A stretch of 47,624 nucleotides of DNA, taken from Candidatus Aenigmatarchaeota archaeon (GTDB taxonomy: Archaea > Aenigmatarchaeota > Aenigmatarchaeia > Aenigmatarchaeales > JACQIB01). A program made the position numbers and the translations under genes. Under the pieces are notes generated by a model. That model did not search any database. It saw nothing but the letters and a program-made list of their open reading frames with translations, and was not told the DNA's origin. The DNA is taken from contig JAWABM010000001.1 of assembly GCA_038999215.1 (NCBI GenBank), forward strand, positions 15,349 through 62,972, written 5' to 3'. Shown here piece by piece: positions 27,201-29,022 of this stretch (the stretch's first letter is position 1; every line of letters starts with the position of its first letter).

Positions 27201-29022
27201 CATCTTCGACGATATGAACAGCAGGAACATCATAGAGAAGAAATCCTATGTCGAGGCCGGAGGCGCGACGAGATACAAGCCTTCCGCCGTCTGGGCGAAC
27301 TTCACATGGAACGCACCGGAAGAATACACCACGAGATGGGACGATATACAGGTAACCGGCCTCGGGGCGCCGACAACGAACGCCGATCTGATTGGCCAAG
27401 GTATTGTGCCGGGCATATTTTCAGTGACAGGCTACCAGGTGTTCGGCGGGAGCAGCATAACAGAGGGCATCCAGGGGTCTGCAGGCGCAAGCGCATCAAA
27501 GCCGTTCGCGATACCAGGCTCGAAGGTGAAATGGTACATCAAGGCTTACGATTACGAGGGCAACGAAGTCTCGACATTCAAGTACGAGTTCAAGGTGGCC
27601 GACGAGAATGCCCCGATGTTCAAGCCAGAAGGGGTGAAGCAGAGCAGCGCGAGGATGCTTCCGGGCGGCAGCGTCAAGCTCTCGGGCTGCATGGCCGATG
27701 CCGGCCAGCTCAAGGAAGCGAGATTCGAGGTGAATTTCGCAGGCGCATGGGTCGGGGTGAAATCCTTCGATTTGCTGCCTGAACGCGTTTGGGCCGGCGC
27801 AAAGACATGCAAAGAAATAGACTACAGCAACCCGGCGATAAAGGCCGGAACAGACATCAAATGGAGGATAAGGGCTGCGGACACCGAAGGCAACGAAGCG
27901 ATTAGCGGTGACATGACGTTCAGAGTGAGCACGAACCCGCCGACCTGGTCGAACAAGATGGTCACTCCTGAGAAGCCGCTGCAGGGAGAGGAGGTCACGA
28001 TATCGATTGATTGGTCTGATGATTACGGCCTTAAGGAAGCAGTATTCTCAACGAATGAAACTGGCATATGGGAGGAAAGAGGAAGGGTCAGCCTTGTAGG
28101 CACATCTGATACGGCAGTGTTCAAATGGAAGAACAGCCTGCTGACGCCAGGAACTGTTGTGGCATGGAAGGTCGCTGGCATTGACACTGACGGCAATATA
28201 GCCGACTCTGACCCTGAATTCACAATAGCGGCCGATACCACGTCGCCGACATGGTCCGACATGAGCCAGAGCAGCGATGCTCCGATGCAGGGAGAGATAG
28301 TGTTTCTAAGCGCCAAATTCGCTGACAATGCAGGCCTCCAAAAGGCGATACTGGAAACAGACGAGAGTGGAGAGTTCAAGAACATGGCGATTGTCACGCT
28401 ATCAGGAAAGGAAGCCACGGCAAGATTCTCCTGGCAGAACCCGAACATCGAGGCAGGGAAAACCGTCAAGTGGAGGATAACGGCGTATGACGCGAGCAAC
28501 AACAAGGTGACTACCAATGTTACGTCCTTCAATGTTCAGGCTGCGCCCGCTGTCTGCCCGCGCTGCCCGGCTGCGACGGACTGGACATCGTGCGTGAGGG
28601 GCAAGCAAACCAGGACGGTATACTCGTGCGACGCGACGACCGGTTACGAATGCAAAGCGAAATATGAGGATATGACGTGCGTGAACACGCCGCAGGAGAT
28701 AGCGCTCTACGCTATCGAGGACGCTAGGGCGGCCCTGAAGGCGGCGGAAGCCGAGGGCAAGGACATAAAGGACGCGAAGGCGCTGCTCAGCGAGGCCGAG
28801 GCGTTCTATGCCGGCGGCAATTATGTTGACGCAAAGATGAAGGCGGACGAGGCTGCAGCGGCAGTTGGCGCCGCGCCCGTGCTGCTCAAGCCTGTGGAAA
28901 TCCTGTGGGTGGCTCTGGGAGTGGTGGTCGCGATATGCGGCGTGGTGCTTGTGATGATGAGAAAGAAAATAACAGGCCATGCCGCCAAGAAGGCGGAGCC
29001 TGCCGATCGGGAAACGCCCTGA
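24256..29022 (+). CDS. Giant surface protein (1588 aa): basic leader/TM, PQQ-like beta-propeller, ~8 Ig-like repeats, Cys module, helical hairpin, TM anchor
   Basis: The propeller region (~aa 60-487) has blade-like motifs SPLYDGQYIYFFTNNGNLYRTD, SRIYVATNQKMYVIYD, HAIYYIDASGFVHLLNHQGKEVW, GNTIFVGGENGLMAL. Repeats (~25717-28545) open with DTERPQI, IIPPKI, DTMKPKI, DENAPMF, TNPPTW, DTTSPTW and close with KDKAGNE, TDLSGNT, TDEDGNV, YDYEGNE, ADTEGNE, IDTDGNI, YDASNNK. The C-terminal cassette matches that of the 13-20 kb island. Confidence 0.85.
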   Translation: MAKKVIKAVKGGRKKAFRKAPMRIGLLAYMWAAVILLLAVGLYTTAAPYGSSSPTAFAAWTTYQGEGQAGFSKENGPSRGELMWNAAPGELVIGSPLYDGQYIYFFTNNGNLYRTDVYGSTALIYNFGKDGMLPTPYSMPMKAKISLKHKVTSTNYEQGRHEYWQYTTHDTIIIPLTSGKILFIEDSKIAKAKEPTGRIVKELAGFDGRTQPIISGDHMFAMINGCLAKISLREDLNVISRLCNINKYGFRTDYGPTMTLYNNNIYLVGKDFSGSHNNVLCKIDTTKDSYANPLMQDYKAPTVTWCSASYGGSTMYGPDLILQGDIVGAPVVVDSRIYVATNQKMYVIYDTGASYEYSNKAEGDKAWLYGKGAAQQPTIYKIDINKHAIYYIDASGFVHLLNHQGKEVWSSPNWYSASKGPMLAAGYWPNVKLYLKNGDQMIALDGIDTFDGGKELWSYSIGEGYNTPIISGNTIFVGGENGLMALTEDTERPQITFIYQSRNTVETGYLGTDQITLSGEIKDSAPSAGLDKIEIQVKERDVWNSVTAKAFKKQVFGAKISADYTPIAKLGETVSWRIYAKDKAGNERTSSIMTFSMVPESNVDVYEPYMTGSEIDKAEVATYEKFKVTTTWQDDFELKDVTLIANENGVESEYYSEFDGINGESETREWYLYSASLGGSTINLRIKVCDAASRHGAAEDRCAEESIGSVIVRDIIPPKITEISQDKDTVKYNEDIKLSVKASDDGGLASVTYKLWDGENMVYVGGAKDVTETYTFRPSSLLQGQVIDWTATVTDLSGNTYDYGTVKRFRVSDTMKPKITAISGPSSVSAEDTADISAVVYDNETRVTKWELYVEYGGKTEKVAEGSPYSEEARVTPQIKATEAYRQAGTVYYYFRVTDEDGNVQDSTKKPLAVTVSCKQRDIYAPFAHLGMQSANSVLPGGNITFSAKISDDVDQYGCGGIKSAKLFAVGEDGIERTIGTIIFDDMNSRNIIEKKSYVEAGGATRYKPSAVWANFTWNAPEEYTTRWDDIQVTGLGAPTTNADLIGQGIVPGIFSVTGYQVFGGSSITEGIQGSAGASASKPFAIPGSKVKWYIKAYDYEGNEVSTFKYEFKVADENAPMFKPEGVKQSSARMLPGGSVKLSGCMADAGQLKEARFEVNFAGAWVGVKSFDLLPERVWAGAKTCKEIDYSNPAIKAGTDIKWRIRAADTEGNEAISGDMTFRVSTNPPTWSNKMVTPEKPLQGEEVTISIDWSDDYGLKEAVFSTNETGIWEERGRVSLVGTSDTAVFKWKNSLLTPGTVVAWKVAGIDTDGNIADSDPEFTIAADTTSPTWSDMSQSSDAPMQGEIVFLSAKFADNAGLQKAILETDESGEFKNMAIVTLSGKEATARFSWQNPNIEAGKTVKWRITAYDASNNKVTTNVTSFNVQAAPAVCPRCPAATDWTSCVRGKQTRTVYSCDATTGYECKAKYEDMTCVNTPQEIALYAIEDARAALKAAEAEGKDIKDAKALLSEAEAFYAGGNYVDAKMKADEAAAAVGAAPVLLKPVEILWVALGVVVAICGVVLVMMRKKITGHAAKKAEPADRETP
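28555..28680 (+). other. Juxtamembrane Cys module (best exemplar)
   Basis: CPRCPAATDWTSCVRGKQTRTVYSCDATTGYECKAKYEDMTC. Confidence 0.7.

Follow-up and report, generated by a model that had tools for sequence, protein, structure and literature searches.

The thrombospondin type 1 repeat (TSR) is an adhesion module characteristic of animals and apicomplexan parasites. In Euryarchaeota, the PGF-pre-PGF domain of surface proteins normally precedes the PGF-CTERM sorting signal, and in DPANN archaea, which live attached to other cells, the surface proteins are almost entirely unannotated. The eukaryotic TSRs are interaction modules measuring about 15 x 20 x 55 angstrom, and the register given by Tan et al. 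(2002) comprises Trp426-Cys429, Arg440-Glu462 and the bottom pair Cys429-Cys466, which joins strands A and C (PMC2173040). According to Xu et al., a second bottom disulfide (A-C) is conserved in all TSP1 domains, and CCN3, an accepted TSP1 member, keeps the third Trp layer only (10.1101/779553). The domains of pleiotrophin and midkine were also described by Tan et al. as TSR-like, with sequences far from those of other TSRs (PMC2173040). Here we describe a module of about 43 residues and six cysteines that occurs in six copies across five genes (B, C, H2, I and O) in a 47,624-nucleotide stretch of DNA from a Candidatus Aenigmatarchaeota archaeon (contig JAWABM010000001.1, positions 15,349 to 62,972), hereafter called the window. 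The best explanation, which we favour with some reserve, is that it constitutes a minimal TSR-like juxtamembrane domain with three disulfides, a probable relative of TSRs that most likely acts as a rigid stalk.

The six copies follow the pattern C-P-x-C-P-x-P-S-x-W-S-x-C-x-x-G-x-Q-x-R-T-x-Y-x-C-x3-T-x-Y-x-C-x4-E-x3-C and were read from the translations. The giant surface protein I (gene 24256-29022, plus strand, 1588 residues) carries one copy at residues 1434-1475 (28555-28680), which scores 71.6 bits against the profile of all six and to which the others are 32-47% identical. On the same strand, protein B (gene 16389-17990) has a variant without C2 and C5 at 17712-17843 (70.8 bits), and protein C (gene 18053-19960) has a divergent copy at 19304-19450 (61.9 bits), with a 7-residue insert and an extra pair of cysteines at profile columns 9 and 24. 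The copy of H2 lies at 23998-24120 (plus strand, 73.4 bits) and gives a weak match to Pfam TSP_1 (E=0.027); H2 is a 94-residue mini-protein consisting only of a signal peptide, one module and a transmembrane (TM) helix with a basic tail (open reading frame 23938-24222, plus strand). The beta-helix protein O (gene 34128-36770, minus strand) has two copies, a distal one at residues 722-762 (34485-34607, 70.7 bits) and a membrane-proximal one at residues 765-805 (34356-34478, 64.8 bits), the latter without W12, Q20 and R22. A scan of the window in six frames with a regular expression found the core W-S/T-x-C-x2-G-x-Q/K-x-R...C at the six module sites only. With the cysteines masked in both profile and query, the window copies scored 24-58 bits against a profile of family members from outside the window, as opposed to at most 10.4 bits for residue-shuffled controls. 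Thus, the similarity of the modules is more than a cysteine pattern. The five coordinate ranges of the initial annotation translate to exactly the peptides that it quoted. The observation made in the window is confirmed as real and is not a chance arrangement of cysteines.

The module is by no means confined to this genome. An exhaustive HMMER search with the six-copy profile against 1.84 billion representative proteins returned 289 proteins at E<=1e-3, 47 of them at E<=1e-10, so that its description as a recurrent module holds well beyond the window. From 197 distinct copies we obtained the consensus x-x-C-P-x-C-P-x-P-S/T-x-W-S-x-C-x-x-G-x-Q-x-R-T-x-Y-x-C-x3-T-x-Y/F-x-C-x4-E-x3-C. Word-indexed protein searches gave no match, whether started from the six-copy alignment or from the last 310 residues of protein I; we ascribe this to the method, given the HMMER result. 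Scans of GTDB species genomes with DNA patterns, rescored with the hidden Markov model (HMM), yielded 15 confirmed loci, all from Aenigmatarchaeota, Woesearchaeota, Pacearchaeota, Micrarchaeota, Nanohalarchaeota or unclassified archaea. About 100 bacterial matches to the DNA pattern were HMM-negative and were rejected as family members, and the loose pattern C-P-x-C-P-x-P-x-x-W-S-x-C gave mostly chance matches in GC-rich bacteria, which the rescoring removed. In their source databases the family proteins are named hypothetical protein or, at most, PGF-pre-PGF domain-containing protein, and we found no publication on the module itself and no literature linking thrombospondin repeats to surface proteins of DPANN, of the candidate phyla radiation (CPR) or of archaea in general. 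None of Pfam, NCBIfam and PDB covers the module, which agrees with the earlier remark that it was not recognised as a described archaeal domain and for which reason the family merits a database entry. The module is a previously undescribed extracytoplasmic domain of about 43 residues of DPANN archaea, restricted to them as far as sampled.

All five host proteins begin with an N-terminal hydrophobic segment and end with a C-terminal TM helix followed by a tail rich in Lys and Arg. In three of them the module ends 7-25 residues before this helix: at residue 487 in B, where the TM helix starts at 495 (hydropathy window 495-513; 17871-17927, plus strand), at residue 63 in H2, where it starts at about 70, and at about residues 805-807 in O, where the tandem copies are followed by a TM helix starting at 832 (hydropathy window 832-850; 34221-34277, minus strand). 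In I and C, an Ala-rich helical hairpin of about 60 residues is interposed. The module of protein I ends at about residues 1475-1477 and is followed by the hairpin (28687-28893, plus strand), the helicity of which is predicted from sequence, by the TM helix at residue 1549 (hydropathy window 1549-1567, score 2.95; 28900-28956, plus strand) and by the basic tail. In protein C the module ends at residue 468, and a hairpin linker that aligns with the conserved linker set (19457-19666, plus strand) leads to the TM helix at 542 (hydropathy window 542-560; 19676-19732, plus strand). A hairpin motif A..AI..A...I..A...gK[DN].t.Ae.LL..A...y...dY..Ak..A..A directly before the TM helix is common to I, C and a further protein, A (residues about 437-500; gene 14696-16360); the element belongs to no Pfam family, and its sole match was a weak one to HVO_1552_C (E=0.95).

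The same layout prevails in the family. Of 148 representatives, 93 have a TM helix that starts within 30 residues of the last module, at a median distance of 6.5 residues, and in another 23 it lies 31-110 residues downstream, mostly at 58-79 residues, which is the interval of the conserved hairpin; indeed, the hairpin linker is present in most of the 21 representatives whose TM helix lies 40-110 residues past the module. In the remaining 28 no downstream TM helix was seen, some of these sequences being fragments. Two to four copies are present in 42 of the 148, mostly head-to-tail and usually spaced by 0-5 residues. The mean net charge is +3.9 in the 15 residues after the TM helix and -1.1 before it, and in 107 of 110 family members the positive charge is greater on the tail side, which places the module outside the cell. 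The fixed juxtamembrane position that had been proposed from the window alone therefore stands family-wide, but the module is not strictly C-terminal, since about eight proteins, which count against our interpretation, carry it right after an N-terminal hydrophobic segment and have no C-terminal TM helix.

The structure predicted by AlphaFold2 from an alignment of 84 sequences, with the copy of protein I as the first, has a predicted local distance difference test (pLDDT) score of 94.2, with no regular strand in residues 1-14 and strands at 18-25 and 35-42. The tandem of protein O was modelled with a pLDDT of 93.2 and repeats the secondary structure of the single copy twice. Both models are confident predictions of an irregular first strand and a beta-hairpin. 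The predicted topology groups C1, C2, C4 and C5 at one end of the module, with C3 and C6 at the opposite end. Moreover, 187 copies have both C2 and C5 and ten, among them that of protein B, have neither, with no discordant copy, and the extra cysteines at columns 9 and 24 occur together in nine copies, among them that of protein C, again with no discordant case. These all-or-none patterns would be hard to explain without pairing. Taken together, topology and covariation point to the pairing C1-C4, C2-C5 and C3-C6, and the disulfides probably form in vivo; the column 9-24 pair indicates that the first segment (strand A) would run antiparallel to strand B. Among the other positions, W12 is conserved in 92% and R22 in 93% of copies, and covariation links R22 both to W12 (p=6e-7) and to E40 (p=3e-4), all these covariation tests being weakened as support by the fact that they ignore phylogenetic relatedness. 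R22 and E40 face each other across the predicted hairpin.

From these data a simple architecture may be proposed. Two disulfides, C1-C4 and C2-C5, would cap the top of the module by joining the N-terminal C-P-x-C-P to strand B where it ends and to strand C where it begins, and C3-C6 would cap the bottom. Between the caps there would be a single Trp layer, in which W12 is stacked between Q20 and an R22 salt-bridged to E40. N-glycosylation was considered as the reason for the conserved Thr31 and rejected, as an N-x-T sequon at columns 28-30 is possible in at most 33 of the 197 copies (those with Asn at column 28). Sixteen copies, including the second module of protein O, have no Trp at all; these are often the membrane-proximal member of a tandem pair, and R22 is also absent in 8 and Q20 in 10 of them. 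This suggests that the W-less copies are a degenerate subtype stabilised by disulfides alone.

The resemblance to TSRs goes beyond the core motif. The spacing of three between W12 and C15 equals that of Trp426 and Cys429, and W-S-x-C closes strand A, which is the rippled one in TSRs. E40 stands four residues before the last Cys, as Glu462 stands before Cys466, so that R22-E40 matches Arg440-Glu462, and C15-C44 corresponds to the bottom layer Cys429-Cys466. On strand B, Q20 and R22 occupy alternate positions that equal the R3 and R2 layers, and columns 9 and 24 are the positions of the W2 and R1 layers. The top disulfide, from C2 at the start of strand A to C5 at the start of strand C, is of the A-C type found in group 2 (spondin/CCN), the group 1 type being B-C. 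The module probably belongs to the TSR superfamily as a divergent member, and its design comes nearest to the CCN/spondin type (CL0692: TSP1_CCN, PF19035; TSP1_spondin, PF19028). With these domains it shares a length of about 45-55 residues, an extracellular location, six cysteines, a predicted irregular first strand leading to W-S-x-C, G-x-Q/S-x-R on strand B, the Glu four positions before the strand-C Cys, a top disulfide linking the N-terminal end of strand A with the beginning of strand C and, as in CCN3, only the third Trp layer. It differs from them in lacking the S-x-x-C insert, the C-terminal Cys and the second bottom disulfide, in having an extra N-terminal Cys paired to the end of strand B and a single R layer plus a Gln, in coming from DPANN archaea and in adjoining a TM helix. 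Pleiotrophin and midkine likewise consist of small three-stranded disulfide-rich domains in tandem, but they are vertebrate heparin-binding cytokines and no sequence similarity to the module was detected.

The sequence statistics are borderline. In an hhalign comparison with 124 TSRs the module profile reached a probability of 54.5% (P=1.2e-4) in a local alignment over 20 columns, which matches W-S-x-C, places a 4-residue gap of the module opposite the SVTC of TSRs and continues with G-x-Q-x-R-x-x-C; against only seven TSRs the probability was 17%. The observed score was reached by 0 of 150 and 1 of 150 column-shuffle controls. When 84 modules were compared singly with Pfam, the only recurrent weak matches were to TSP1_CCN (8 modules, best E 0.016), TSP_1 (2, best E 8.6e-4) and TSP1_spondin (1). 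No window copy reaches the cut-off of any family of the Pfam TSP1 clan (CL0692), the best being H2 against TSP_1, with 15.1 bits where 21.6 are required.

Several results weigh against the relationship that we propose. The direct hhalign support covers only those 20 columns, and a global alignment to TSRs fails. No eukaryotic TSR is among the 150 best database matches of the module profile, and the profile has no match at E<=10 among PDB sequences. In a Foldseek search of the PDB, the single module, of 45 residues and mostly irregular, gave nothing significant (best E about 2, unrelated folds), and the tandem model matched best to pleiotrophin, which has two TSR-like domains (E=0.68, probability 0.18, TM-score 0.27). 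For a domain this small and irregular we do not read the Foldseek outcome as a refutation. Structurally, the module has no second bottom disulfide, C3-C6 being the only one possible, since the Cys of C-S-x-x-C-G and the final Cys are absent, and it has one W and one R layer where TSRs have three of each, stacked as W-x-x-W-x-x-W and R-x-R-x-R with every Arg paired to a residue of strand C. The TSP1 analogy put forward in the initial annotation has evidence on both sides: the residue register, the AlphaFold2 topology with its irregular strand and beta-hairpin, the hhalign core, which is the one proposed, and the weak TSP1-family matches speak for it, while the match scores stay below every Pfam TSP1 cut-off and the Foldseek search did not confirm it. 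We consider a TSR-like fold of the module very likely, and the analogy is supported as the best structural reading; the initial interpretation was right in its main points. Common ancestry with TSRs is probable, and formal membership in the Pfam TSP1 clan is not established.

Indirect evidence comes from other prokaryotic repeats. The core W-S-x-C-x-N-G-x-Q-T-R-T is abundant and was found in at least 120 loci from DPANN, CPR/Patescibacteria, Methanosarcinales, Bacteroidota and others, in repeats of different types, for which we found no family name. Among the matches listed, the dominant repeat is C-x3-W-x-C-x2-W-S-x-C-x-N-G-x-Q-T-R-T-C-x-D-x-N-x-C-G-x5-K-P-x3-Q-x-C, which has no Pfam match. 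A four-Cys bacterial repeat type with the identical core reaches an hhalign probability of 80% against TSRs over 38 columns, and the repeats of two loci, one from Pseudobdellovibrio (L217, 3196-4143) and L232 (2493-3098), pass the threshold of Pfam TSP1_ADAMTS (PF19030), with 40.2 and 34.7 bits against 23.8. Like the module, these repeats are Cys-rich, extracellular, repeated and enriched in ultra-small episymbiotic lineages, and their core motif is identical. They differ in having four or six cysteines at other positions (as in C...W.C..WS.C.NG.QTRTC.D.N.CG....KP....Q.C), in lacking the C-P-x-C-P head and the Y-x-C-x3-T-x-Y-x-C loop, and in often forming long arrays and showing no observed link to a TM helix. 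Module and core repeats resemble one another over 16-18 columns only, and for loci selected by pattern this resemblance is partly there by construction. The module belongs, as a part, to a wider undescribed set of prokaryotic repeats with the TSR core.

These repeats bear on the possibility that the module is a convergent cysteine-rich mini-domain, in which W-S-x-C...G-x-Q-x-R and the three-strand layout would mimic a TSR without common ancestry. The limited hhalign support, the negative Foldseek and PDB searches and a disulfide set unlike that of every described TSR group all favour convergence, to which short disulfide-rich domains are easily subject. However, families of the TSP1 clan are the only recurrent weak Pfam matches, the W-C, R-E and E-C spacings equal the TSR register residue for residue, and there is a gradation from the prokaryotic repeats that have this very core to sequences above the TSP1_ADAMTS threshold. 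Convergence is in our view unlikely, and we retain the module as a new, divergent TSR-like juxtamembrane domain family that merits a family definition of its own.

As to its function, the module lies at the base of surface proteins that would be anchored in a type-I manner, usually after a PGF-pre-PGF domain and 0-25 residues or one hairpin before the TM helix. Its most likely role is that of a rigid, disulfide-stapled and elongated stalk, resistant to proteases, by which enzymes and adhesins are kept at a distance from the membrane, and the tandem copies, two to four in number, would lengthen it. We infer this stalk function, which the initial annotation had suggested beside oligomerisation and sorting, from the constant location between a variable ectodomain and the TM helix, from the tandem arrays and from the predicted elongated TSR-like shape. 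The ectodomains are indeed unrelated to one another, as had been noted from the window: across the family they include beta-helix/NosD, bacterial Ig-like, subtilase, PKD, PQQ propeller, M6 and C1 peptidase, FG-GAP, laminin-G and CARDB domains.

A pure spacer does not readily account for H2 and similar family proteins of 84-113 residues (P0031, P0045, P0058 and P0132), which consist of the module and a TM helix only. The H2 gene ends 33 nt upstream of that of protein I, and the pair is kept in the closest Aenigmatarchaeota metagenome-assembled genome (MAG; L001, 1750-2049 and 2080-7290), which suggests that the two genes are co-expressed; the H2 orthologue of this locus is 56% identical, and a further orthologue is the database protein P0031. 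The module-only proteins and the conserved pair point to a role of the module in its own right, such as lateral docking. The main rival to the stalk is accordingly a docking or oligomerisation handle, by which the module would bind a common partner on the membrane side (H2, a different protein with the module, or the lower face of the S-layer) and organise diverse surface proteins via one shared interface. Proteins without any ectodomain beyond the module, the H2-I pair, the presence of the same module on unrelated enzymes and adhesins, and the interaction role of eukaryotic TSRs (PMC2173040) are all in keeping with such a handle. On the other hand, tandem arrays of two to four copies are more typical of spacers, the H2-I synteny is seen in two closely related genomes only, and the most conserved residues are all accounted for by stabilisation of the fold, so that a docking handle seems to us rather unlikely. 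A bolder combination, in which module and H2 form a DPANN-specific anchoring system that replaces PGF-CTERM and archaeosortase and docks many unrelated enzymes and adhesins at the surface of these episymbionts through a TSR-like handle, and in which the module derives from a large prokaryotic TSR-like superfamily of DPANN, CPR and other bacteria, placing the origin of the TSR in prokaryotes, is doubtful and can be put forward only as speculation.

The relation to PGF-CTERM deserves comment. In protein O, a PGF-pre-PGF domain (TIGR04213; 34644-34868, minus strand, residues 635-709; NCBIfam 37.9 bits, cut-off 28) ends 12 residues before the first module, and in 63 of 146 representatives such a domain lies upstream of the first module, mostly ending 2-14 residues before it. 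The NCBIfam scan detected PGF_pre_PGF only and no PGF-CTERM; here the Cys module occupies the place of PGF-CTERM after PGF-pre-PGF. Protein A also has a PGF-pre-PGF domain (residues 182-330) and, like protein O, no PGF-CTERM. The euryarchaeal cassette of PGF-pre-PGF and PGF-CTERM (TIGR04213/TIGR04126) resembles the present arrangement in its upstream PGF-pre-PGF domain, in the succession of domain, short element, TM helix and basic tail, and in its occurrence on diverse surface proteins, and differs from it in that the element before the TM helix is here a predicted folded disulfide domain and not a Pro-Gly-Phe motif. The module, TM helix and basic tail could thus be imagined as a DPANN counterpart of PGF-CTERM, that is, a sorting or processing signal cleaved by a dedicated enzyme and attached to lipid or envelope. 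Its tripartite C-terminal layout and its place after PGF-pre-PGF match the euryarchaeal signal, and it occurs on many unrelated cargo proteins. Nevertheless, the module appears from the models to be a folded 43-residue disulfide domain, unlike a short linear motif, it can be present in tandem or, in some proteins, at a long distance from any C-terminal TM helix, the segment between module and TM helix (0-25 residues or the 60-residue hairpin) has no conserved motif such as PGF, and no sortase-like gene was present among the window genes scanned. We therefore regard a sorting signal as very improbable. Least credible of all is a metal-binding domain in which C-P-x-C and other cysteines coordinate zinc or another metal instead of forming disulfides, since beyond the N-terminal CxxC and scattered single weak matches to zinc-ribbon and PHD families it is faced with cysteines that are lost and gained strictly in pairs, an extracellular location, and a model in which C3 and C6 lie across an 8-residue hairpin from C1, C2, C4 and C5, so that four ligands could not meet once C2 and C5 are lost.

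The module marks the membrane-proximal base of many DPANN surface proteins and gives a practical means of identifying the surface proteome, of topology prediction and of construct design. If the relationship to TSRs is true, the thrombospondin repeat, usually regarded as a eukaryotic fold and discussed as moving between eukaryotes (PMC3417536), is not confined to them. There would then be many diverse prokaryotic TSR relatives, concentrated in two radiations of ultra-small episymbionts, with consequences for how the fold arose. The family provides a testable connection between an adhesion fold seen as eukaryotic and episymbiotic prokaryotes.

The genomic surroundings of the five genes show how these surface proteins are embedded. 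The closest genome contains module-bearing counterparts of I, H2 and O and a B-like protein that is similar to B mainly around the module. The GGGP synthase gene of the window (30401-31366) shares 82% identity with its counterpart in an Aenigmatarchaeota MAG and 61-77% with those of further Aenigmatarchaeota or unclassified archaeal MAGs, which marks the window as DPANN archaeal. Housekeeping genes are interspersed among the surface-protein genes, coding for a HerA-like ATPase, a Hef-type helicase, an ERCC4 nuclease, PcrB, a GCD14-type methyltransferase and an A24 type IV prepilin peptidase, the last at 31352-32173 on the minus strand. A larger open reading frame that overlaps H2 in another frame (23925-24230) is probably spurious.

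Some other features of the window proteins are worth recording. Protein A has, at residues about 339-420 (window positions about 15710-15960), two copies of a different Cys-rich repeat, C-G-N-G/T-x-C-x3-G-E-x4-C-C-x-D-C-G-C-x6-C-x-N-N-T-C, without a Pfam match, and a similar C-G-N-G-x-C-E-x-x-E motif follows the module in the database proteins P0035 and P0113. The cytoplasmic tail of protein C (19817-19957) contains CxxC...CxxC...C...CxxC, a putative zinc ribbon, and a similar tail follows the TM helix of P0017. Finally, a long basic N-terminus (MAKRK.../MAKK...) precedes a hydrophobic stretch in each of the proteins A, B and I, encoded by the genes at 14696, 16389 and 24256; judged from their sequences, these N-terminal regions could be not Sec signals but class III signal peptides or else signal anchors.

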